Positions 28,130-40,202 of a stretch of 64,000 nt of DNA are shown piece after piece. The position numbers and the translations under genes were made by a program. How positions within the stretch are numbered: the stretch's first letter is position 1; each line of letters opens with the position of its first letter. The notes beneath the pieces are model-generated. The model was given only the letters and a program-made list of their open reading frames with translations, did no database searches and was not told where the DNA came from. Source of the stretch: Alphaproteobacteria bacterium (GTDB lineage: Bacteria > Pseudomonadota > Alphaproteobacteria > UBA7887); the NCBI GenBank assembly GCA_965216755.1, contig CBDCGL010000011.1, positions 3,840,001 to 3,904,000 on the forward strand, in the 5' to 3' direction.

Positions 28130-29518
28130 CTACAGCTCCAGCCGGCCGCCAATGGTGATGATATGCTCGGTCAGGTCGGAATTGCCAAGAACTGTTTCGT
28201 ATTCGATGAACCCGGCCTTGCCGCCCGCCAACTGTGCGGCTGCGCCGAGCGAGAAGTTGAAGGTGTCGCGCTCCGGATCTTCGGTCAGCACTTGGAACGG
28301 AGATCCGAATGGATCGGACGCGAAGCGAGACGTGATAGCGCGGCTGTCGTTTTCGAACTCATGCTCCCATTCCAAGCGAGCTTGGGGGCTAAGAATGCCG
28401 AAATCCATCGATACCGGATACACCGCGATCACACCCAATCGGCTGCGTCGCGAGGTAATATCCTGCTCATCGACACGCAAATTGAGACCGTTGGCGCCGG
28501 TTTCGGTAAAGCCGTCGATGTCAACCCGCAGCTCGGTCAGCTGGGCAAACGGCGTGACCGTTGCTTGTTCCAGCTGGATATTGTAGCCGGCGCCGATCGT
28601 GCCCGCGATTTCAAAGCCATCCGAATTGCCACTGGCCGTGCGGCTGAGCGTGTCACTGGGGATTGAATAGACGATCCGCCGCTCGGTATCCATGTCCAGG
28701 AAACTGATCTCCAGCACACCTTCGACATACCAATTGTCGACGAAATAGGTCGCGAAACCGGTGAGATTGTAGGCGTTGGATTCCAGGCTGCCGCCACTGC
28801 CGTCGAAGTCATTGTCGCTGAAGGTATAGCCCGCGGCCGCGCCGACCAGGAACTGGTCAGAGACTAGGTAGTCGGCGCCAATCGTGAAGTCCAAGGCGTA
28901 GAAGTCAAAGCCTTGCCGCTCTGACGTGCCGTCGACGTCACCAAAACTGAAGGAACCCGAGCCAAACAAACCAAGCTGGCTGAAATCACCATCGCCGGCA
29001 CTCAGACCACTGTCGCTGGGTTGTAACCCGGTCAGGTTTGGTGAAACCACGTAGTCGTGGGCCATATTGAAGGCGGTCGACAGTCCACGCAGGTCGACCC
29101 GCGGACCACCAGCGCGCAAGCTGCCCAGTCTGTCGCCGACCGCCTCGCGCTGTGGACTCGATATGTCTGTCGCATTGATACCGCCTGCAGGGAAATCTGC
29201 CGGTGATACTTCTTCCAAGGCGCCCAATACGGGCCCGGTCGCCAGTCCATCGACGACATAGTCCGTGCACCTTCCGGCGAGATCGTCCAATGCACTGCCG
29301 CCGTCCACGCCGCGGCCGGGATCGACTGCCCCCGCGCCGCCCAACAAGGGGCACGACGATGCCACGGCATTTGACACACTGGACTGCAGCCGCGTTTGCG
29401 CCTGCGTCTGGCTCGCACCAAACGAAGTCAACGCAAGCGCGATTGCCACACCGGCATAAACAACGAACTGCGACGCCCTGACTGGGATCGCATCGTCAAT
29501 TCTTGCTTCACACAGCAC
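28130..29518 (-). CDS. Autotransporter beta-barrel domain protein with very short passenger
   Basis: Signal peptide, Cys pair, amphipathic strands (GADY, GAAAGY, PQARLEWEHEF), C-terminal GRLEL; RBS AGGGGG before GTG. Confidence 0.85.
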   Translation of the reverse strand: MLCEARIDDAIPVRASQFVVYAGVAIALALTSFGASQTQAQTRLQSSVSNAVASSCPLLGGAGAVDPGRGVDGGSALDDLAGRCTDYVVDGLATGPVLGALEEVSPADFPAGGINATDISSPQREAVGDRLGSLRAGGPRVDLRGLSTAFNMAHDYVVSPNLTGLQPSDSGLSAGDGDFSQLGLFGSGSFSFGDVDGTSERQGFDFYALDFTIGADYLVSDQFLVGAAAGYTFSDNDFDGSGGSLESNAYNLTGFATYFVDNWYVEGVLEISFLDMDTERRIVYSIPSDTLSRTASGNSDGFEIAGTIGAGYNIQLEQATVTPFAQLTELRVDIDGFTETGANGLNLRVDEQDITSRRSRLGVIAVYPVSMDFGILSPQARLEWEHEFENDSRAITSRFASDPFGSPFQVLTEDPERDTFNFSLGAAAQLAGGKAGFIEYETVLGNSDLTEHIITIGGRLEL

Positions 29519-29737
29519 GGTGAAACCCCCTGCCTTTATCTAACCCGTCCAAGAAAATGGTAAGCGCCCCAGTCGGGTACTGTCAAACCAGCAGTTGCAG
29601 AAAGGTCACGTGTGTGCGTTTTGACAAAATGTGTGGCGTCAATGCCATATGCTTGGACGATAACCAACGAATGGGTGATTGCTGCGTCCGCGCACAACGT
29701 CAACCGATTGCGACCGAGGCAGCCGCCATTGGCCAAA

Positions 29738-29783
29738 CAAAAAAACCGGCCGGAACGGGGTGACGCCCCACTCCGACCGGCCC
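29738..29783 (-). terminator. Probable rho-independent terminator after 29807..30172
   Basis: GC hairpin CCGGCCGGAACGGGG..CCCCACTCCGACCGG followed by a U-tract on the minus strand. Confidence 0.55.
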
Positions 29784-29806
29784 TTGGTTGTCTATCGTGG
29801 TGCGTT

Positions 29807-30172
29807 TCAGCGCACGGCTTGGACCAAACAAAGTGATTCACGGAAGGCCAATATGAACACCGATGGATTGACCTCGCCTTGGCGTCGGAACGACACCGAT
29901 TGTTCGTCAATCAGCGTATTGAAGGTGAAGCCGGCCAATTCAGCCTCGTCGATCACTTTCTTGCCTTCTTGCCAGCATTCGGCACGGACCGGACGATCGG
30001 CCAAATAGTACTGGCGCGTTGCCGTGATCGGGCCGGACGCCGCATTCGAATCGACTTCACCATCGATCGCGCTACGACCTTGCCCGGCTTGCGTGAGGAT
30101 GCCGCCCGCCAGAGCCACGGCGAACAAGGCACCCAGGGTCAAAGGGCGGACCTTAAGGGGGGAAAGGGCCAT
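29807..30172 (-). CDS. Hypothetical exported protein (Cys pair, CWQEG motif)
   Basis: RBS AGGAG; N-terminal hydrophobic segment; 24 bp downstream of the CsgG-like gene. Confidence 0.75.
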   Translation of the reverse strand: MALSPLKVRPLTLGALFAVALAGGILTQAGQGRSAIDGEVDSNAASGPITATRQYYLADRPVRAECWQEGKKVIDEAELAGFTFNTLIDEQSVSFRRQGEVNPSVFILAFRESLCLVQAVR

Positions 30173-30196
30173 GGTTTTTCTCCTGTTGCTCAGACG

Positions 30197-31693
30197 CTAT
30201 TCGACACGGATCTTCAACCGCGCGTCGACGGCGCCGGCCGGATCGAGACGGCGGTAGATGTTCACGACCTCATCTAGCGTATTGACGGGAACCGGCGTCA
30301 GATCCGCGATTTTCAGGTTCTCAGGCACACTCATGCCGACTTCTTTGTACGAGGCCACGCAGGCAACCTCTTCTTGCGCGCCTGGTTGGTCGAAAACGAT
30401 GTCGTAGAGCGCGACTTCGCTCGGCAGATCGAAGGCTTGGCGACCGACCACATAGGGATCCGGCCGGAATTGGTTCGGATAGATCCGGGCGATCGAACCG
30501 CGCGCATCCTGGTAGTAGCAATAGAGATACGAATCCTGCGAAACGGCGACCCGCATCTTGAGCTTCTGACCGACCTGATAGGTCGGTGACGGACCGTTGG
30601 CCGTCGACAAGTCGATCGACAGCGGCGGCACAATGTTGCTGGCCGCTATAATTTCCGGTTTCGCCGGTTGTACGCCCAACGCCAGGTCTTGAGTCATCAG
30701 CGATTGATACAGATCGAAATCGATGCGCCCATTGGCGATCAACCCGGCATCGGCCTGATAACGCGAGATCGCACCAACGGTGGTGGTATCGAGTTGTCCG
30801 TTTTCCTCGCCGGCGTAATAGCCTTGGCTGGCGAGCGCTTGCTGGGTGAAGCGGATCTGTTCGTCCTGGGTCATCGAGTCAAACCAGTCACGCGCTTGCG
30901 CGATCATTTTCGGGTTGGTGTGCTCGATCTGCAGGCAACGCCAATACGGAACGCGGGTGAGCTTGCCCAACGTTTCGATAGCGGTGAGTTCGATCAACGT
31001 GCGCACCGATTGGGCCATGCCCTCGGCCGCATTGAGCGAAATATTGAAGAAGATACCGGCGTTGCCGATCGTGCCGCCGGCATCGCCACCGGTGCCGGTG
31101 CGGGTTACCGAGATCGAGTTGCTGGCGCCAATGCCCGGCATGATTTGCAACTTGGCCAGTTCGCCAATGTTCATATCCAGGGTAACGACCGAAACAACCT
31201 GGTCCTTGTTGATACCCAGTTCGGCTTGCGGGAACGCAAGTCCGCCACCAGCCGACTCGGCGATGACGCCCTCGTCCAATTGCGTGATGGCGCCGCGGAT
31301 ATAGTAGCGCGGCACGCTGAACTCGTCGGTGAAACCGACCAGGCTGTGCAACTGCAGCACATCCGCTTGGGTGACGTCGAAATCAACAAACGTGAACGCC
31401 TTACTGCGGACCGACATCCGCGAAATTGCGGAAATCAACATGTCCTTTGTGCCGGCACGCACATTGCCTGTCTCGTCGGGAAGACCAGCGCTGGTAATGA
31501 CAATATTGTTGACGCCAAAGGACGCGTACAAATTGTCCATGCATTTCAGCGATTCGCTGAAACTGGTGATATTCCGGACCGCCGTCGATTTAGGCTGTGC
31601 TGCAACCGGCGCTGTCTGCGGATCGGAAAAAGCACATGCCGATGTGGCGGCCGCGACGCACACGGCAATCGCCGATTTGATTGACCGTCTCAT
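30197..31693 (-). CDS. CsgG/HfaB-like lipoprotein fused to peptidoglycan-binding and DUF4384-like domains
   Basis: Lipobox TSAC; SFSESLKCMD..LPDETG..DMLISAIS..YIRGAITQLD; PG-binding motif QQALASQGYY..GQLD..AISRYQ..GLIANG; C-terminal YQVGQKL..YLYCYYQD..IYPN. Confidence 0.8.
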   Translation of the reverse strand: MRRSIKSAIAVCVAAATSACAFSDPQTAPVAAQPKSTAVRNITSFSESLKCMDNLYASFGVNNIVITSAGLPDETGNVRAGTKDMLISAISRMSVRSKAFTFVDFDVTQADVLQLHSLVGFTDEFSVPRYYIRGAITQLDEGVIAESAGGGLAFPQAELGINKDQVVSVVTLDMNIGELAKLQIMPGIGASNSISVTRTGTGGDAGGTIGNAGIFFNISLNAAEGMAQSVRTLIELTAIETLGKLTRVPYWRCLQIEHTNPKMIAQARDWFDSMTQDEQIRFTQQALASQGYYAGEENGQLDTTTVGAISRYQADAGLIANGRIDFDLYQSLMTQDLALGVQPAKPEIIAASNIVPPLSIDLSTANGPSPTYQVGQKLKMRVAVSQDSYLYCYYQDARGSIARIYPNQFRPDPYVVGRQAFDLPSEVALYDIVFDQPGAQEEVACVASYKEVGMSVPENLKIADLTPVPVNTLDEVVNIYRRLDPAGAVDARLKIRVE

Positions 31694-32103
31694 AATTCTA
31701 GACCCTTTCCTGGCCGAGGGGCGGACCGAAAGCCACGCTGCCGGTTGTTGTTCTCCCGCTCGGGCTCCATTGATACCTCGTTCCACAACGACGATCATTT
31801 GGCGTCTTCGCCGGCGCAAACCGGTTCGACGTCGTCGGCACCGACGTTACCACAACAAGGTCGAAGACGCCCATGCAACCGCTGGATCGGACCGGCATGG
31901 CGCAGCCGGTGGGTCAACTGCGCGACGTGCCCGTGCACCCGCCTTCGCCGCGGTCGCCGAATGCCTTCGTCGTTTGCCGCATTCAAGTCAATGCGTTGGT
32001 CGGCGACAACAACGTGACAGGTCGAGGGCAGGGCGGCGCCGCGTCGCGCGGCCCCGATCCCTGCCCCCAATCGTCATCGAGTGACGAGTGGATTTGGCAT
32101 TGC

Positions 32104-32616
32104 TTAGCAAGTGGGGGTGCCGAGCGTGCCGATCTCCATGCAGGTGGTGGTGTGGTTGCCGACAGACACCGCCGCGTTGCGCTTCGCGATCACGGCCTGC
32201 TGCACGACACCGTTGACCTCGATGTCACGCGCCGTGCCGATGTGCTGGCGGCTGTAGGCGTAGTTGCCGTAGGCGACGTTGGCGTTGTCCTTGGCGATCA
32301 CGGCGCGCTGCATCACACCATTGATCTCACCATTCTCGACCGTGCCGATCCGGGTACGGGCGTCGGCGTAGTTGCCAACCGCGACCGTGGCGTTGCCCTC
32401 GGCGATCACCGCATCCTGCAGCACACCATTCACCGTCAGGCCACCCTTCTTGGCGCCACTTTCCTTGCCGAAGTCGTTGTTCGACAGAACGTTCACGACG
32501 GCGGCTTTTTGCTTAACCTTGGTGAAGTCGAAGTTGATGTCGTCAGCCGAAGCGGCCGAAACGGAAACCACGGTCAGAGCCGCAACAGCCGCCGAAATCT
32601 TCAGAAGTGCGTTCAT
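32104..32616 (-). CDS. Secreted 36-aa-repeat protein A1 (putative fibre subunit)
   Basis: Sec signal (..SAASA), three xxNGVxQxAVIAxxNxxVxxGN..IGT repeats, C-terminal Cys pair; RBS GAGG. Confidence 0.88.
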   Translation of the reverse strand: MNALLKISAAVAALTVVSVSAASADDINFDFTKVKQKAAVVNVLSNNDFGKESGAKKGGLTVNGVLQDAVIAEGNATVAVGNYADARTRIGTVENGEINGVMQRAVIAKDNANVAYGNYAYSRQHIGTARDIEVNGVVQQAVIAKRNAAVSVGNHTTTCMEIGTLGTPTC

Positions 32617-32702
32617 TGTTGAATCCTCAAATTAGGGTGGGTTTGATCTAGTCGCGTGACGACCGGGTCGTTTGGCTCTAACCGTGTCGCCCGGCCTGCC
32701 TG

Positions 32703-32733
32703 TAAACACGCTGCCCGCGGCACAGAGGGGTGA
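32703..32733 (-). promoter_or_regulatory. ECF-type promoter of A1
   Basis: TCACCCC-N16-CGTGTTTA with upstream A-tract. Confidence 0.75.
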
Positions 32734-32789
32734 TCAGCTTGAATTTTTTTGTTTCATGTCTGTTTGGCGCCGGCGCGAATACTGCGAAA

Positions 32790-32834
32790 AAACAAAAAAA
32801 TAAACCGCCGCAGCATTTTAAGCACTGCGGCGGT
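32790..32834 (-). terminator. Rho-independent terminator after B1
   Basis: ACCGCCGCAG..CTGCGGCGGT stem followed by a long U-tract on the minus strand. Confidence 0.8.
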
Positions 32835-32888
32835 GTCGGATCGTGGGGCATACACGTCGCCAGGTTGGCGACTCCCAAACAGCCAGAA

Positions 32889-33191
32889 TTACCTGCATCC
32901 GCCGGCGCCGACCACGTTGATCACGTTCTTGGCGACGACGATGATCTCACGTGGCGCCTGGCCGTTGCCGGGATCGACATTGCCGATGCTGACATTGCCG
33001 CAGTCGCTGGAACGTTGCTCCAGACGCCGGGCCTCGCCACGCGTCAGGAACGTCTTGGCGAAAGCGCTGTTGACGCGCGACTGTGATCCGGAATCCAAAT
33101 GCGGCCGCTGATTGAACTCTTTGGCGCTGACGCTGGCTGCGGCCAGGGTCAACGAACCGGCCAACGCGATCACGAAAGCTGTTTTGGTCAT
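32889..33191 (-). CDS. Small secreted Cys-pair protein B1
   Basis: Signal peptide; CGNVSIGNV..PREIIVVAKNVINV..C; paralog of 34029..34337; RBS AGGAG. Confidence 0.85.
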   Translation of the reverse strand: MTKTAFVIALAGSLTLAAASVSAKEFNQRPHLDSGSQSRVNSAFAKTFLTRGEARRLEQRSSDCGNVSIGNVDPGNGQAPREIIVVAKNVINVVGAGGCR

Positions 33192-33281
33192 TGGTGATCT
33201 CCTATGTCCCGGTGAAAGGCTTTGGCGGAACCCGGGACTTTGCCGCGGGTTCCGCCGTGTAAGCGGTGGATTTGGCGTTGC

Positions 33282-33794
33282 TTAGCAGGTGGGGGTGCCG
33301 AGCGTGCCGATTTCCATGCAAGCGGTGGTGTGGTTACCGACGGAAACGACCGCGTTGTCCTTGGCGATCACGGCCTGCTGGACGACACCGTTGATCTCGA
33401 AGTCACGCGCCGTGCCGATGTGCAAGCGGCTGTAGGCATAGTTGCCGGCGGCGACGTTGACGTTGTTCTTGGCGATCACGGCACGTTGCAGAACACCGTT
33501 GACCTCACCGTTCTCGAGCGTACCGATGCGGGTGTAGGCCTCGGCGTAGTTACCGACCGCGACCGTGGCATTGCCTTCGGCGATGACCGCGTCCTGGACC
33601 ACACCGTTGACCGTCAAACCGCCCTTCTTGGCGCCGGTACCGGGGCCGAAGTCGTTGTTCGACAGAACGTTCACGACGGCGGCTTTTTGCTTAACTTTGG
33701 TGAAGTCGAAGTTGATGTCGTCAGCCGAGGCGGCCGAAACGGAAACCACAGTCAAAGCGGCGACGGCGGCGGAAATCTTCAGAAGTGCGTTCAT
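33282..33794 (-). CDS. Secreted 36-aa-repeat protein A2
   Basis: 152/170 aa identical to A1 by manual count. Confidence 0.88.
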   Translation of the reverse strand: MNALLKISAAVAALTVVSVSAASADDINFDFTKVKQKAAVVNVLSNNDFGPGTGAKKGGLTVNGVVQDAVIAEGNATVAVGNYAEAYTRIGTLENGEVNGVLQRAVIAKNNVNVAAGNYAYSRLHIGTARDFEINGVVQQAVIAKDNAVVSVGNHTTACMEIGTLGTPTC

Positions 33795-33881
33795 TGGTCA
33801 AGTCCCCTAAGAAGCGTTGATGTGTTGCTGGTGACGTTGCGTTGTTGGTGATGGCGTGACCGTGTCTTGCCGGTCTGCCCT

Positions 33882-33912
33882 TAAACACGCAGCGCTTCCG
33901 AAAGGGGGGTTA
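33882..33912 (-). promoter_or_regulatory. ECF-type promoter of A2
   Basis: TAACCCC-N16-CGTGTTTA with upstream T-tract. Confidence 0.75.
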
Positions 33913-33950
33913 GGGACGCCAAAAAAATGTCGGGGCACGCCAGTCAATAG

Positions 33951-33975
33951 AAAAAGGCCGCCCGATGGGGCGGCC
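33951..33975 (-). terminator. Rho-independent terminator after B2
   Basis: GGCCGCCC-N4-GGGCGGCC stem plus UUUUU on the minus strand. Confidence 0.8.
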
Positions 33976-34028
33976 CTTGCATCTTCAGTGGCACCAGCCT
34001 ATTTGGCGCCAAACGTCTTGATCACGTT

Positions 34029-34337
34029 CTATTGGCAACCGCCTGGGCCGACCACATTAACAACGTTTTTGGCGACCACAATGATCTCGCGTGGTGCCTG
34101 GCCATTGCCAGGATCGACGTTGCCGATACTGACATTGCCGCAATCACCCGTGCGCTTTTCAAGCCGTCGCACTTCTCCACGTTTTTGAAAGTTCTTCGCC
34201 AAAGCGCTGTTCACGCGCGATTGCGAACCGGAGTCCAGATGCGGCCGTTGGTTAAACTCGCCGGCTTGCGCTGCGCCGGTCAATGCCGTCACGCTGAAGG
34301 CGAAAGCCATGGCGATCAAAGGGGCAGGAAGTCTCAT
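34029..34337 (-). CDS. Small secreted Cys-pair protein B2
   Basis: Mature part 65/77 identical to B1 by manual count; different signal peptide. Confidence 0.85.
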   Translation of the reverse strand: MRLPAPLIAMAFAFSVTALTGAAQAGEFNQRPHLDSGSQSRVNSALAKNFQKRGEVRRLEKRTGDCGNVSIGNVDPGNGQAPREIIVVAKNVVNVVGPGGCQ

Positions 34338-34507
34338 GATCCGTCTCCGTGTCTAAGGACGGTGCCGATAGAGTAACCCGGCCTTGGCGAGAAAACCACG
34401 TCGAAGCCGCGTATATGTCTACCGGCGCCCCCTAACTGGCCAAATAGCAATGCCAATGCCATGCGGTCTTTCAATGCAACACCGCTCGGCGATAGGTCAT
34501 GTGCAGC

Positions 34508-35014
34508 TTATTCACACGTCGGTGTGCCAACCGTGCCAATTTCCATGCAGGCGTCGGTGTTGTTGCCCGAAGAGACCACTGCATTATCCTTGGCAATAAC
34601 CGCTTGCTGAACCACGCCGTTCACTTCTACGTCGCGCATCGTGCCAATATGCAATGTGCTTTCGGCATTGTTGCCGGCCGCGACATTGACATTGTCTTCG
34701 GCGATCACGGCGCGTTGCACGACGCCGTTGATTTCGCCACTCTCAATCGTACCGATGCGTGTATTGGCTTCGGAATTGTTGCCAACCGCGACTGTGGCAT
34801 TGCCGTCAGCGATGACAGCATCCTGCACAACGCCATTGATCTCAACACCACCGGATTTGGCACCCTTGCCGTCGGCGTCGTTGTTTGACAAGACGTTGGT
34901 AACGGCCGCTTTTTGTTTGACCTTATTGATGTCGACTTCTTGTGCGACAGCTGTCGAAAACAACAACACCGCAATTGCACTCGTTGCCATCAGAACTTTA
35001 CCAAAAGCGCTCAT
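34508..35014 (-). CDS. Secreted 36-aa-repeat protein A3 (more divergent paralog)
   Basis: Same KVKQKAAVxNVLSNND leader, three repeats and CMEIGTxGTPTC end; start ATG 35014 (or 35029). Confidence 0.85.
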   Translation of the reverse strand: MSAFGKVLMATSAIAVLLFSTAVAQEVDINKVKQKAAVTNVLSNNDADGKGAKSGGVEINGVVQDAVIADGNATVAVGNNSEANTRIGTIESGEINGVVQRAVIAEDNVNVAAGNNAESTLHIGTMRDVEVNGVVQQAVIAKDNAVVSSGNNTDACMEIGTVGTPTCE

Positions 35015-35205
35015 CTCACGATCCCCCATCGGAATGTTCGGTCAAAAGTACGGAATCTTTCGCTTCGTTCGCCTCCGATGTCTTCCAACAGCAAATACTA
35101 TAGCGTGGCAGTCGAATTTCGCACCTACAATTCGGCTCTGTCGCGAAACATTCATTCTGGGATTTGTCGGCGCGGGCCGACCTATAACCACAGTCGTAGT
35201 ACAAC

Positions 35206-35240
35206 AAAAAGGGGCGCTGTCCCGATTGGTCAGCGCCCCC
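35206..35240 (-). terminator. Rho-independent terminator after the anti-sigma gene
   Basis: GGGGCGCTG..CAGCGCCCC stem plus U-tract on the minus strand. Confidence 0.8.
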
Positions 35241-35263
35241 GCACGACGTCGATTGTTCAGCCT

Positions 35264-36775
35264 CTAGCCCGCGTCGCCTGGCCCGAACTCAAGAAAGATG
35301 TGATCGCTCAACACTTGCGCCTCACCACCCTTTTCCAGCTCGACCAAGGCACGACGCAGATGGGCAAAGTAGCTCTGCGCGTTTTCCACTTCGGGCCGGG
35401 GCTCGGCAAACAAAGGGTGTGACGATGAAATGATCGTGATCATTTCCGTGCCAAACGGTGCCACCACTTCATACGGTTTCGGGCCGTCGCCAATGCGCAT
35501 GGCCTGCCCGCGCGGCACGGCCTGGGTCGGATCCCGTCCGGCCAGCGTCAGATGGCGGACGGACCCGTCGCCCTGAATGAAATCGACATAAACGTAGCTG
35601 TCAAACAGGCTCGTCGCCGTCGCTTCCAAGAGCAAGGTCTCGCCCTCGACATAGCTTAAGGTGTGGGCAACCGGCCGGATCATGGGTGCGGCGCCGACGC
35701 TGGCGTCGGTGACCGTGAAGCGGTGCAGGATTTGCAGCGTCTCGCAAAATGGCCAGTCGCGCACGAGGACCTTGTCCGTATTGACGGCAACCTGTTCGGA
35801 AAGATCCGAGACTTCTCGACGCAGCAACGCGACATCGCTTTTGCGCGAAACATAGCCGGTGATGTTCAGCGCGTCGGCGCCCTCGACATGTGCGCCGAGC
35901 CGGGCGCAATCAAAGTCGTCCATGATCGACGTCAGTTTTTTCAGCGGGAAACCAGCCAAACCGACCGGGCCTTCCAAGGCCCGTGTGCGCGGTTGGCTGA
36001 GCTGTTGATTCTGTTGCGCCAAGCGCGCGTTTTCCTCGGCCAATCCGGCATTCGATTGCGCCAACCCGGCGTTTTCCGCGGCCAACTCGTTATAGTCGGG
36101 TGAAACGCCCAAATGCAGGTATGGGGTCACGCCTTGGCCGACAAACATGCCGATCAGCAAACTGGCGGCCATCGCGAAACCGGCGACCGGCGAATGGACA
36201 ATGCGACCTACCATAGACCGCCGCCGCGGCTGGAACCGCACCACCGTGTCATCGGATGGATCGGTTGCTTCATCGGTTATCTTCGGTGTCGGCGCATCAA
36301 CGGTTTCGACCGACGCGTCCCGGCCCATGTCTTGTCCGACGCCATTCTTGGCGTAAGCCAAGATGGCGTCATCATGGCCGTCCCAGGCAATCGGTTGCTT
36401 GGTCTGTTCATAAAGGCCGTAAATCGCCCGATCGGCTTCCGACATGTCGTCGTCGCCGATAGCGGGGCTCTGGTTCGCGCTGGGTCGGGCATGCACTTCG
36501 CCGCTGCGGGCATACGTCAGAATCGACTCATCCCAGGCATCCCACGGGATCGTGTCGCGGCCGCGGTCATACAATTCCAAAACAACGGCCTCGGCTTCAT
36601 CGACATCGGCGTGACTATCACGCGCCGCGTCCTGGGATTCCTTGGCGAAGCCCAGAATGGCATCGTCAGACTCGTCCCAGTCAATCGGGTCCTGTGTGCT
36701 TTCATAAAGACGCAGGATGACGCGGTCTGCCGCTGTCAAATCCTCGTCGTCGCGTTTTGTTTTGTCCTGTGCCAT
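35264..36775 (-). CDS. Putative membrane anti-sigma factor (triplicated cytoplasmic motif, TM, coiled coil, DUF4384-like C-terminus)
   Basis: Directly downstream of the ECF sigma; VVRFQPRRR then TM with AASL; C-terminal YVEGETL..YVYVDF..APFGTEMI. Confidence 0.7.
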   Translation of the reverse strand: MAQDKTKRDDEDLTAADRVILRLYESTQDPIDWDESDDAILGFAKESQDAARDSHADVDEAEAVVLELYDRGRDTIPWDAWDESILTYARSGEVHARPSANQSPAIGDDDMSEADRAIYGLYEQTKQPIAWDGHDDAILAYAKNGVGQDMGRDASVETVDAPTPKITDEATDPSDDTVVRFQPRRRSMVGRIVHSPVAGFAMAASLLIGMFVGQGVTPYLHLGVSPDYNELAAENAGLAQSNAGLAEENARLAQQNQQLSQPRTRALEGPVGLAGFPLKKLTSIMDDFDCARLGAHVEGADALNITGYVSRKSDVALLRREVSDLSEQVAVNTDKVLVRDWPFCETLQILHRFTVTDASVGAAPMIRPVAHTLSYVEGETLLLEATATSLFDSYVYVDFIQGDGSVRHLTLAGRDPTQAVPRGQAMRIGDGPKPYEVVAPFGTEMITIISSSHPLFAEPRPEVENAQSYFAHLRRALVELEKGGEAQVLSDHIFLEFGPGDAG

Positions 36776-36826
36776 GTCTTGACCATTTAGGAAGCCCGAC
36801 GCAAATCGGACCGTTTCCAATACTTT

Positions 36827-37414
36827 CTATTGCGTGCCCAAGACCTTGTTCTTCAGGTGCTGGCGGGCGTAGCGCAATCGCGTTTTCACCGTTTCTCTAT
36901 TCGTGTTCATGACCTCGGCGATTTCCTCGTAGCTCATGTCACCTTCCAGATGCATCAGAAGCGTGGCCTTTTGCACGTCCGAGAGTTCGTCGATGGCTCT
37001 CATCAGAATTTGGGCCTTTTGCTTGTCGCCGTAGATCTCTTCGGGGTTGGCAATATCGATGTTGAACGTGTCCAGGACTTCTTCATCGCCGACCACGGTC
37101 TCGTCGAAATCTACGGTTTCGTAGTTTTTGTTCTTCCGATACCAGTCAATGAGTTGATTCTTCGCCAGTTTGTACAAGTAGGTCGTGAACTTTGCCTCCG
37201 CTGTGTATTGGCCCGATCGACACGCCCGAACCAGCTTGAACCACGTTTCGTGGGCCAGCTCGTCGCCAACTGCGGGAGATCCGCACTGGCGCGCGAAAAA
37301 GCGCCGTAAGCCTTCTCTTCGTCGGCGGTATACCGCCTCGAAAGCACCATCATCGCCCGACAAGTACTGTTTCATCAGATCTTCGTCGGTCAGAGATATG
37401 TCCGCTACGGTCAT
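36827..37414 (-). CDS. ECF (sigma-70 group 4) RNA polymerase sigma factor
   Basis: DEDLM..GDDGAFE, DELAHETWFKL, FTTYLYKLAKNQLIDWYR (region 2), MSYEEIAEVM..TVKTRLRYAR (region 4). Confidence 0.93.
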   Translation of the reverse strand: MTVADISLTDEDLMKQYLSGDDGAFEAVYRRRREGLRRFFARQCGSPAVGDELAHETWFKLVRACRSGQYTAEAKFTTYLYKLAKNQLIDWYRKNKNYETVDFDETVVGDEEVLDTFNIDIANPEEIYGDKQKAQILMRAIDELSDVQKATLLMHLEGDMSYEEIAEVMNTNRETVKTRLRYARQHLKNKVLGTQ

Positions 37415-37460
37415 CTCCGCGCCTGGCTGTCTAGTGATCAAAACGGCCATTACACTTCCA

Positions 37461-37490
37461 TAACACGCGTGCCGCGGCAAGAAGGGGTGA
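37461..37490 (-). promoter_or_regulatory. Autoregulatory ECF-type promoter of the sigma gene
   Basis: TCACCCC-N16-CGTGTTA, 46 nt upstream of ATG 37414. Confidence 0.75.
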
Positions 37491-37618
37491 CCGTTGGCGA
37501 TGCGTTAACGACAAAAATCCGGCGCGCGATGTCGTTTCGATAATGCATTGATTTTTCTTAAATTTATTTGCAAACCGCAAATTCGCGCCGCCGTCGCGGC
37601 GATTTTTTTGCCGTCCGG

Positions 37619-37648
37619 TGACCCTCATCCATTTCAACCGACGTTTAA
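37619..37648 (+). promoter_or_regulatory. ECF-type promoter of the divergent small ORF
   Basis: TGACCCT-N16-CGTTTAA preceded by a T7 tract. Confidence 0.6.
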
Positions 37649-37727
37649 AGAAGTGCGCGGGCACGGATCGCGCGGTCGGCCGGTCGAAACGCCAGGCCGA
37701 AGACTTAGCGGACAATGGGAGGCAGAA

Positions 37728-37892
37728 ATGGCCAACAATTCAGACTATCAGCGTGCTTTTGCCCGCGAGTTGATTAATTCCATGGGCGTCGACGGCGCTA
37801 TCTATATTGCCCAGCAGCATCATTGGGACGGCGTTTTGGCCCATTGCCTGCGCGCCCAAGCCGAAGACCGCGTTCAGGCCTGCGCCGCCTAG
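37728..37892 (+). CDS. 54-aa hypothetical protein
   Basis: RBS GGGAGG; MANNSDYQRAFARELINSMGVDGAIYIAQQHHWDGVL..; own ECF-type promoter. Confidence 0.7.
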   Translation: MANNSDYQRAFARELINSMGVDGAIYIAQQHHWDGVLAHCLRAQAEDRVQACAA

Positions 37893-38021
37893 TCGGTCCC
37901 CGGCATCACATCACACTGTCGATAAAACGCGCCGCGTCTTGCGGCGCATATTTCTTTTTTGGCCGTCGACAATGTCCGCGGATCACCAAGTGACAGACAA
38001 CCGCATGGGGCGCACATAACT

Positions 38022-38075
38022 CCTGCCGCCCAAATGCGCCCTGCCGCCCAAATGCGCCCCGCCGCCCAAGTGCGC
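38022..38075 (+). repeat. Three tandem 18-bp repeats
   Basis: CCTGCCGCCCAAATGCGC x2 plus CCCGCCGCCCAAGTGCGC. Confidence 0.9.
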
Positions 38076-38116
38076 CTTATGACCGGGTCACACATCACAC
38101 ATTTTTTTGTCGGCAC

Positions 38117-38147
38117 CAACCCCGATCGACGCGCTCTCCCGTGACTA
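38117..38147 (+). promoter_or_regulatory. ECF-type promoter of the OmpA-family gene
   Basis: CAACCCC-N16-CGTGACTA preceded by a T7 tract. Confidence 0.65.
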
Positions 38148-38258
38148 TAGGTGAGACGTGCCCCGGCCCTGGCGGCGGGGCGCCCGTGTAACAGGTTAGA
38201 CAACAGGTTTGGCGGTCGGTCCTTGGTTTGAGAGCCGACACCTTAAAGGGAGCGGATT

Positions 38259-39095
38259 ATGACTAGGCTCAAAACAACTTTGATGGCGACGGTGTGGAGC
38301 GCGAGCGTGGTTTTCGCCGCGGCCCAGGCTCAAGCCCAAGATGTGAATTATCTTGATGAGAATGCCACCCATTGTGAAATTTTCTCGTCGATCAGCATGG
38401 TGATCCCGGGCGACTGTGCCCTCGGTCTCGATGCGCCGGCGGCCAACCCGGCTACCGGTTTGGCGCCGCGCACCCGTGGCATCGTGCGCTACGATACGCC
38501 CGGTGGTACCCCGACGCCGGTGGTCCAGGCGACCGTGCCGTCGGCCCCGGCCCCGGCGCCCGTGGCGGCGGTCGAAACGCCGGAGTGGGATGACGTGCAG
38601 ATCGAGGACGCGGTCGCGGTCGCCGCACCGGCGCCGGTGGTGGCGGTCGAAGTGACCCCGGTTGCCGAAGAGGCGATCGTCGCCGACGCCACGCCCGTGC
38701 CGGCTGCCGTCGTCCAACAGGACAAGGACCCAGAGGAATTGGGTGTCGCGCTGCGCGTCGAGTTCGAGTACGACTCGTACCGATTGACCGGTGAAGCTCT
38801 TCAGGTCCTGGATCGTGTCGCCGCGGTGCTCAACGATCCCTTGCTGCGCGACAGCATGTTCCTGATCGAGGGACACACCGATGCCGCCGGCCCCGACGCT
38901 TACAACGTGACCTTGTCAGAGCGGCGTGCACAGAGCGTGCGTCAGTATCTGGCCCAGGCTCACGGCGTTGACTTCTCGCGCTTGGCCTACATGGGCAAAG
39001 GCGAGAGCGAGCTTTACAATCCCACGGATCCGTATGCCGCGATCAACCGTCGTGTCGAGATCCGCAACATCAGTGTGAACACGCCCACCGGCTAA
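38259..39095 (+). CDS. OmpA-family peptidoglycan-binding protein with Pro/Ala/Val linker
   Basis: Signal peptide; IEGHTDAAG..YNVTLSERRAQSV..NRRVEI. Confidence 0.9.
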   Translation: MTRLKTTLMATVWSASVVFAAAQAQAQDVNYLDENATHCEIFSSISMVIPGDCALGLDAPAANPATGLAPRTRGIVRYDTPGGTPTPVVQATVPSAPAPAPVAAVETPEWDDVQIEDAVAVAAPAPVVAVEVTPVAEEAIVADATPVPAAVVQQDKDPEELGVALRVEFEYDSYRLTGEALQVLDRVAAVLNDPLLRDSMFLIEGHTDAAGPDAYNVTLSERRAQSVRQYLAQAHGVDFSRLAYMGKGESELYNPTDPYAAINRRVEIRNISVNTPTG

Positions 39096-39368: not shown

Positions 39369-40202
39369 GGGCTTGTTGAGATTCATCGAGAATTGATGAC
39401 CGCGGCGCATGCGTGAATCATGGAACAAAAGTTACGATCTGTCTTTTCGCAACGCATGGCGACCGCTTTGAATTCCTTGAGCTTCGCAAAGAAGTTTTCG
39501 ATCAGGTGGCGCCACTTGTAGATCTCCAGATCAATCTTGAGAGGGGCCAACCTCTGGGGGCGTTGCGAAATGACGATCTGCGCCCCGCGTTCATTCATCT
39601 CTTCGATGATCCAGTTGGAATCGAATGCTTTATCGGCCAGCACTGCGTCGAATTCGATGTCTTCGATTAGCGGCGCAACACCGACCGTATCGTAACGGTT
39701 TCCCGCCAGCAGGACAAAGCGTACGAGATTTCCCAAGCCATCCGTCAGCGCAAGGATTTTGGTGGTCCAGCCTCCCTTCGACTTGCCGATGGCTTGATTT
39801 TGAGTCCCCCTTTTGCGCCGTGTCCGTGGCGGTGGACCGGAACAATGGTGGCGTCGATCATGGCATATTCCATATCAGGGTCATCCGAGACCGCGGCAAA
39901 GAGGCGTTCGAAAACGCCCGCCTTCGACCAATCGTCAAACCGCTTGAATACCGTGTTCCACTTGCCGAATTCTTCAGGAAGATCGCGCCAAGGACTGCCC
40001 GTCCGCGCCTTCCACAAAACCCCTTCGACAAACAACCGGTTGTTATCACCACTGCGGCCCGGATCAGTCCGCTTGCCTAAGCAATGCGGCTCCATCTTGG
40101 CCCATTGATCGTCTGAAAGTACTGTACGCGTCATCAAAGCCCCCAAAAGGAAGCTTGAATCACAAATACAACACCATGGGAATCCTAATTCTCAACAAGC
40201 CC
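39369..40202 (-). mobile_element. IS5-family (IS427-like) insertion sequence, 834 bp
   Basis: Terminal IRs GGGCTTGTTGAGA / TCTCAACAAGCCC, TA duplication in a CTAG target, two-frame transposase. Confidence 0.93.
39383..40134 (-). CDS. IS5-family transposase (orfA 39745..40134 plus orfB, programmed frameshift)
   Basis: WRDLPEEFGKWNTVFKRF, IDATIV, ADKAFDS, YKWRHLIENFFAKLK; slippery AAAAGGGGG at 39806-39814. Confidence 0.9.

Follow-up and report, generated by a model that had tools for sequence, protein, structure and literature searches.

A gene cluster encoding a CsgG-fold lipoprotein and candidate repeat-protein cargo of an alphaproteobacterial envelope module

A gene cluster of an Alphaproteobacteria bacterium (lineage UBA7887) raises the question of whether a CsgG-like lipoprotein outside the curli system exports a cargo of its own. 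The cluster occupies positions 28130..39095 of a 64,000-nt stretch of DNA (positions 3,840,001 to 3,904,000 of contig CBDCGL010000011.1, assembly GCA_965216755.1), which as a whole is called the window here. Experiments have established CsgG-type secretion for curli and, in a less direct way, for the Caulobacter holdfast anchor. Dueholm et al. 2012 found only 26% of the Pfam CsgG hits in curli operons (PMC3521004), and little is known of what the other CsgG-like proteins do. The cluster links one wall-anchored branch of these proteins to a defined candidate cargo, a 36-residue-repeat solenoid with two small partners, and this makes the question on that branch testable. A preliminary description, made from the DNA letters alone, proposed an undescribed fiber secretion system analogous to curli and Fap and governed by its own extracytoplasmic function (ECF) sigma factor. 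With moderate confidence, we favor the reading that some Alphaproteobacteria have a conserved envelope module without a name, one copy of which lies in the window. The core of this module is a CsgG-fold lipoprotein that would export the repeat proteins, termed A, by the mechanism proposed below. The cluster probably exports an undescribed surface fiber or coat.

The lipoprotein and its relation to CsgG

The 498-aa outer-membrane lipoprotein encoded at 30197..31693 on the minus strand is composed of a CsgG-fold domain (approximately residues 41-257), a PG_binding_1 domain (277-332; E 6.4e-9), and an immunoglobulin (Ig)/macroglobulin-like DUF4384 domain (356-498; E 2.3e-18). Its signal peptide ends in T-S-A-C, and hhalign aligned the lipobox cysteine with that of E. 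coli CsgG. The idea that the N-terminal domain adopts a CsgG fold survived our check, as structure comparison confirmed the CsgG alpha/beta fold. CsgG outscored the PelC, FlgT, LptE, and HpaA-type folds by 3-4 Z units and had more residues aligned; GNA1162, another non-curli lipoprotein of the CsgG superfamily, also scored under CsgG. The earlier label "CsgG/HfaB-like" was therefore borne out by structure comparison but found no support from sequence-family cut-offs. The sole sequence-family hint for the N terminus is HfaB (NCBIfam NF037935), which matched the window lipoprotein with an E value of 0.0058 and 15.9 bits and, in the genome search, gave an E value of 0.035 and 14.5 bits, against a cut-off of 300. 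When the lipoprotein profile was compared with the PDB, just weak PG-binding matches were returned.

The hhalign comparison with E. coli CsgG also aligned the D-E-T-G motif and left the first hairpin segment free of gaps. In all 38 homologues, both hairpin segments are without gaps and their hydrophobic columns alternate, a pattern that would be the one expected of membrane-spanning beta-hairpins. In the model of the lipoprotein, these segments have low predicted local distance difference test (pLDDT) scores. In an alternative that we regard as unlikely, the lipoprotein would be a ring or scaffold of the PelC, FlgT, LptE, or HpaA type, tethered to the wall and sitting in the periplasm against the inner face of the outer membrane; A and its partner B would be periplasmic or membrane-associated structural proteins organized by it, and nothing would be exported. 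The margin by which CsgG outscored those folds argues against such a scaffold, as does the retention at full length, with alternating hydrophobic positions, of both segments that form the CsgG barrel. PelC, FlgT, LptE, HpaA, and GNA1162 are not known to have the two long hairpins of the CsgG type.

The lipoprotein has more than 600 homologues (621 of the 8000 scored candidates had E ≤0.001). DUF4384 combined with PG_binding_1 is present in nearly all of the 120 homologues listed, and 2 of the 120 have a precomputed match to PF03783. Relatives occur in Azospirillum, Magnetospirillum, Rhodopila, and Geminicoccaceae-type genomes, and many of the homologues are named "CsgG" in the JGI annotation.

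Companion genes in other genomes

The genes around the lipoprotein were compared across 80 loci holding its relatives, from Azospirillum, Magnetospirillum, Caenispirillum, Rhodopila, Aliidongia, Geminicoccaceae, and other metagenome-assembled genomes, and all open reading frames (ORFs) of these loci were searched with jackhmmer. Upstream counts refer to the 72 loci with at least 1.5 kb upstream of the lipoprotein gene, and downstream counts to the 73 with at least 2.5 kb downstream. We found that the A and B genes co-occur with the lipoprotein gene in other genomes and do so in the same order, A > B > lipoprotein, a second check that the preliminary idea survived. Directly upstream, B was found in 33 of the 72 loci; 23 had an A gene on the lipoprotein strand no more than 3.5 kb away, and 22 had both. 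The coordinate rule missed a B gene in two further loci (L029 and L065), and some loci with B (L019, L021, and L090) have their A genes in another part of the locus. In G010, a genome of the same family and another genus, the A > B > lipoprotein order occurs twice. Among 300 genomes sampled evenly from the class, 2 had B and 4 had a full-length lipoprotein. The lipoprotein gene is present in both genomes with B, A lies beside B in each, and in one of them (G134) the lipoprotein gene comes directly next.

The window genome itself contains further copies. A second, more typical set at C11:2457931-2460735 on the minus strand consists of a 108-aa A protein with two repeats, a 138-aa A protein with three, a B protein, and a lipoprotein 59% identical to that of the window; neither a small-protein gene nor an OmpA gene comes after it. 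Extra A sites outside the window were found at C11:524084-524593 and C11:2824585-2825536. One of these copies is solo and 100% identical to A2 including its promoter; the other shows 98% identity to A1, and the B gene after it 87% identity to B1. The A/B module was copied recently to unlinked sites in the genome. The duplicates, 89-100% identical and including the promoter at the two other sites, together with an IS5-family transposase that flanks the cluster, lend something to the view that the genes are neighbors by chance or through recent local duplication and form no single system. We consider this view highly improbable, since many genera, at protein identities of 25-45%, have the genes in the order A > B > lipoprotein > small protein > OmpA.

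Turning back to a conserved module, two other genes proved to be commoner companions of the lipoprotein than A and B. The gene for a small exported protein was found downstream in 42 of 73 loci and a gene for an OmpA-domain protein in 36 of 73; in 56 of the 80 loci, an OmpA-domain gene is no more than 5 kb away from that for the lipoprotein. By phmmer, relatives of the small protein were detected in 36 of 85 loci. The conserved core is formed by the lipoprotein, the small protein, and the OmpA protein; about half of the loci lack A and B.

The Azospirillum loci (L040 9995-19014 of sp. A26 and 15 others) illustrate this arrangement. There, the lipoprotein gene is followed by genes for the OmpA protein, the small protein, and a 373-aa DUF4384 protein, and then for a probable CHASE2-type cyclase and a caspase-like protein, both named from their translations; no A or B gene was detected in these loci. 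A 2026 report on Azospirillum baldaniorum describes thioflavin-, Congo-red-, and formic-acid-type amyloid signals and states that csgA and csgG are absent (PMC13723633). The presence of a CsgG-fold lipoprotein in other Azospirillum species bears on that report, the lipoprotein having been seen in species other than that strain.

Two kinds of additional protein were observed near lipoprotein relatives. At L031:6885-8432 and L050:6858-8387, a 515-aa lipoprotein is encoded directly upstream of A, and its C-terminal half is like the periplasmic half of the putative anti-sigma factor of the window, including DUF4384; thus, the DUF4384-bearing domain recurs around the system in different carriers. 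In Rhodopila-type loci (L062:3243-3842, L064:3416-4006, and L071:1611-2210), secreted proteins of ~197 aa have repeats that are curlin-like in style, five or six in number, and rich in Gly, Asn, and Gln. Their genes are on the strand opposite to the lipoprotein gene, ~6 kb away, and the proteins gave no Curlin_rpt match.

Candidate cargo and proposed mechanism

The three A proteins of the window are encoded on the minus strand at 32104..32616 (A1), 33282..33794 (A2), and 34508..35029 (A3). They are Sec-signal proteins with triple repeats, as first described: each ends in exactly three 36-aa units with 16-21 of the 36 residues in common. A1 and A3 showed 89% and 68% identity, respectively, in the A-protein alignment. 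A3 ends in a C-terminal Cys pair, and throughout the family a Cys pair is kept in the last rung. The sequence of A2 was used for an AlphaFold2 model, in which residues 57-170 were confident (block-mean pLDDT 81-92) and formed three beta rungs of ~36 residues; the ~35 residues after the signal peptide were disordered. A is predicted from this model to be a three-rung beta-solenoid. The model bears most resemblance to FapC; a Foldseek search with it gave nothing at E ≤0.001.

A word-based search of 5.8 billion clustered proteins detected A in this genome only, plus one fragment, and HMMER over 1.84 billion representatives retrieved 26 proteins at E ≤0.001. Among these, 24 are short secreted proteins with the same kind of repeat; the other two, long repeat proteins, are unrelated. 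The number of repeats varies within the family from 2 to about 12. Neither A nor B nor the small protein matched a Pfam (even at E 5) or NCBIfam family, with no HfaA or HfaD match for A or B, and the profile of A had no match in the PDB. The claim that the cargo family is new stands when set against Pfam, NCBIfam, and PDB, although the module occurs in other genomes too. Separately, sub-threshold Pfam matches to OMP_b-brl in three A-like proteins were set aside, as the model is a solenoid and the sequence ends in Cys without a barrel signature.

These properties of A bear on a further alternative, in which A is exported but remains a monomeric or short surface protein, such as an adhesin, an ion- or ice-binding solenoid, or a polysaccharide anchor as in the Caulobacter holdfast, and does not form a long amyloid-like fiber. 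The three rungs of A are few, the Cys pair closing the last rung could be a cap, and the weak fold matches of the model include ice-binding proteins and adhesin solenoids. There is also a precedent in HfaA and HfaB, where a CsgG-like protein is reported to serve an anchor (PMC6707917). Conversely, the spread of the family from 2 to ~12 repeats, the multiple gene copies, and the strong private promoters suit a bulk structural subunit, and we judge a short surface protein to be unlikely.

In addition to A, the window encodes two copies of the small Sec-signal protein B, at 34029..34337 (B2) and 32889..33191 (B1, 90 nt downstream of A2), both on the minus strand. The two paralogues are 70% identical and have a conserved N-terminal motif and a C-terminal Cys-to-Cys segment, which in the window copies measures 36 residues, the length of one A rung. 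N27, C64, G70, N92, and C99 are invariant across 37 B sequences. The 121-aa small exported protein (29807..30172, minus strand) starts 24 nt past the lipoprotein gene and has an invariant core of C-W-Q...G...C, corresponding to C66, W67, Q68, G70, and C115; it had no Pfam or PDB match. For both B and the small protein, the ESM Atlas contained "hypothetical protein" clusters only. The exported OmpA-domain protein, which is peptidoglycan binding (PF00691, E 1.6e-20), is encoded divergently at 38259..39095 on the plus strand and has an N-terminal segment with a Cys pair and a Pro/Ala-rich linker. One relative of it (L080) also has the N-terminal Cys segment. Cys pairs were read in the translations of A, B, the small protein, the OmpA protein, the autotransporter passenger, and the periplasmic part of the putative anti-sigma factor, in agreement with the preliminary description.

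Under the export reading, A, B, the small protein, and the OmpA protein would cross the inner membrane by Sec, in keeping with the signal peptides read from their sequences. The lipoprotein would reach the outer membrane and assemble into a CsgG-type ring, whose barrel and pore would be formed by the two conserved amphipathic hairpins. A would pass through this ring and fold outside into a three-rung solenoid with 36 residues per rung, and the solenoids may then stack end to end into a fiber or coat. B could couple A to the channel, or start or cap the polymer, and the small disulfide-containing protein may be a periplasmic helper. The PG_binding_1 domain and the OmpA protein would tie the machine to the cell wall.

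Several observations weigh against this reading. At the sequence level, the window lipoprotein had no Pfam CsgG (PF03783) match at E ≤0.01, and its paralogue, the sole match in a six-frame genome search, reached 19 bits against a cut-off of 20.8. The hhalign probability against E. coli CsgG was only 10.6% (E 0.0029), and within that same alignment a 12-residue gap in the query falls right after D-E-T-G, where the E. coli constriction loop (Tyr51/Asn55/Phe56) aligns. Profile comparisons by hhalign gave no match of A to CsgA beyond the signal peptides, none of B to CsgF, none of the small protein to CsgE or CsgC, and signal peptides only between B and A; Curlin_rpt was not found in A even at E 5. 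For export, the Cys pairs of A and B would need either to traverse the channel as disulfide loops or to be oxidized outside. Moreover, 39 of the 72 loci had no B counted directly upstream, including all 16 Azospirillum records listed and also L029 and L065, in which the rule missed a B gene; with so many lipoprotein loci lacking B, the function of the lipoprotein cannot be A export alone. Finally, the promoter motif of the A genes, described below, was not found before the lipoprotein, B2, and OmpA genes and only partly before the sigma gene, and it is common to the A genes partly because their upstream regions are duplicates. As a speculation, the missing constriction loop could widen the lumen enough to tolerate the short disulfide loops of A and B. 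Such a channel, lacking the curli constriction, would also be of interest to nanopore engineers.

A bolder form of the export reading can be put forward only tentatively, and we hold it to be rather doubtful. The cluster may represent a third kind of dedicated bacterial machine for beta-solenoid or amyloid fibers beside curli and Fap, built on a wall-anchored CsgG-type channel without a narrow constriction and with an in-built periplasmic Ig-like domain. Such a machine would export the Fap-like three-rung A, and the one-rung, disulfide-stapled B would template or anchor it. The ECF sigma factor and the DUF4384-bearing anti-sigma factor would sense the state of the periplasmic pathway, and the same core with other cargo could underlie the amyloid-like matrix signals of Azospirillum.

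In its likely function, the cluster resembles curli and the Caulobacter holdfast anchor. As in curli, an outer-membrane CsgG-fold lipoprotein is accompanied by adjacent Sec-exported repeat proteins that are predicted beta-solenoids, by small exported accessories, and by a second small partner of the major subunit. Unlike in curli, the lipoprotein lies under the Pfam CsgG cut-off, has a gap at the constriction loop, and is fused to PG_binding_1 and DUF4384; the subunits carry Cys pairs, an ECF sigma factor is found in place of CsgD, and the repeats measure 36 aa, whereas the curlin repeat has roughly 22 aa. No curlin, CsgE, CsgF, CsgC, HfaA, HfaD, or Fap relative was detected by sequence, in line with the preliminary description, in which no csgA/B/E/F, fap, or hfaA/D sequences were recognized. 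By the sequences of its components, the window system is not a member of the curli system. Fap of Pseudomonas (FapC/FapB with the FapF barrel) differs in that no sequence similarity was detected and in its exporter, which in the window is CsgG-like and not a FapF-type barrel; the Pfam scan revealed no FapA-, FapD-, or FapE-like genes in the window.

The Caulobacter holdfast anchor offers an alphaproteobacterial parallel: its CsgG-like lipoprotein HfaB is reported to be needed for surface placement of HfaA and HfaD, small proteins that form multimers (PMC6707917). In contrast, the HfaB score of the window protein is far under the cut-off, its PG-binding and DUF4384 domains are extra, and no holdfast genes were seen in the window. 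We found no description of the system in a literature search that covered neither subscription-only papers nor bioRxiv supplements, nor any paper pairing DUF4384 with CsgG; DUF4384 papers concern caspases, kinases, and Deinococcus. The preliminary interpretation is partly supported. The cluster would be a form of CsgG-type secretion and assembly, a known kind of system, with undescribed cargo and accessory families.

Regulation and borders of the cluster

The gene order given in the preliminary description was confirmed by six-frame reading and by Pfam and NCBIfam scans. Upstream of the A and B genes, also on the minus strand, lies the gene for an ECF-type sigma factor (36827..37480; Pfam Sigma70_r2 1e-10, r4_2 6.9e-14, and Sigma70_ECF; NCBIfam sigma70-ECF 1e-24). 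The ORF as listed begins at TTG 37480, and a start at ATG 37450 or 37414 is likelier. It is followed, 7 nt past its stop, by the gene for a 518-aa single-pass protein (35264..36820, minus strand), which from its position and topology is a putative anti-sigma factor. This protein has three N-terminal repeats of ~45 aa, one hydrophobic span, a coiled-coil-like stretch, and a periplasmic DUF4384-type domain. The C-terminal DUF4384 match is weak (E 8.6e-5, 23 bits, under the 27-bit cut-off); 21 of its 26 homologues, which are 26-40% identical, have PF14326 (DUF4384). Pfam and NCBIfam scans detected no known anti-sigma domain in the protein, and BLASTP gave no link to the lipoprotein (E 0.66). The three ~45-aa repeats are acidic, make up its cytoplasmic part (residues about 20-165), and match no family.

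A motif, TGTTT[AC]-N17-18-[AT][CA]GGT, is present exactly upstream of A1 (32681-32708), A2 (33859-33887), and A3 (35123-35150), in each case on the minus strand, and of the two further A copies elsewhere in the genome, that is, of all five A genes. It has 32 matches across the whole 5.0-Mb genome, and its strict form retrieves only four near-identical A promoters. The region upstream of the sigma gene matches 9 of 11 motif positions and has ACGGTCAC in common with the A2 site. The best scores before B2, the lipoprotein, the OmpA, and the autotransporter genes were 8-9 of 11. Of the five window promoters said to share one motif, three do (A1, A2, and A3), perhaps with the sigma gene as a fourth, but not five. 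The A genes are amplified in this lineage (three here and two elsewhere), and their private motif is probably read by the adjacent ECF sigma factor. The membrane anti-sigma factor would carry a periplasmic DUF4384-type domain of the same family as that on the channel protein.

The sigma/anti-sigma pair itself could not be upheld as a general part of the system. It accompanies the module in 2 of 80 other loci, which points to a lineage-specific add-on. In one of these (L080), the window-like pair is divergent from A and OmpA, as in the window, and the anti-sigma relative beside the sigma gene is shorter (381 aa, with one N-terminal repeat); the other is L028. The A upstream region of L080 has only a GACACGG element in common with that of the window, at another spacing.

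Terminator-like hairpins on the minus strand follow B1 (32804-32834), B2 (33953-33978), and, as a strong one, the small-protein gene (29741-29785), and a sigma-70-like site (29557-29586) precedes the autotransporter gene; no terminator was predicted between A2 and B1. From these signals, the likely transcription units are the sigma/anti-sigma pair, A3-B2, A2-B1, and A1, the last perhaps including the lipoprotein and small-protein genes; the autotransporter gene would form a unit of its own. This gene (28130..29518, minus strand) encodes an autotransporter with a short passenger of ~140 aa (PF03797, 1.4e-60; TIGR01414, 2.6e-21). Its inclusion in the cluster did not hold up, as it is linked in 2 of 85 loci and is separated in the window by its own terminator and promoter-like site; it is probably a separate unit of doubtful membership. 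In one locus (L023), an autotransporter 30% identical over its full length sits between the A and B genes, and so a loose association is conceivable.

A 54-aa ORF on the plus strand (37728..37892), which has a good ribosome-binding site, had no Pfam match and no relative in the 85 loci. The intergenic region from this ORF to the OmpA gene contains 3.1 copies of an 18-nt unit (94% matches) at window positions 38022-38076, and this repeat may be a regulatory element. In four contig runs of one study, which may be the source of the window, all unique parts of the cluster were covered without differences and the breaks fell inside the A repeats; the A1-B1-A2 order was neither bridged nor contradicted. 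The cluster is bordered on one side by an alpha/beta-hydrolase gene and on the other by the IS5-family transposase, which lies directly beside the OmpA gene (window 39383-40146, minus strand) and is split into two ORFs (DUF4096 and DDE_Tnp_1). From 40202 on, ATP synthase F0 genes follow, as named from their translations.

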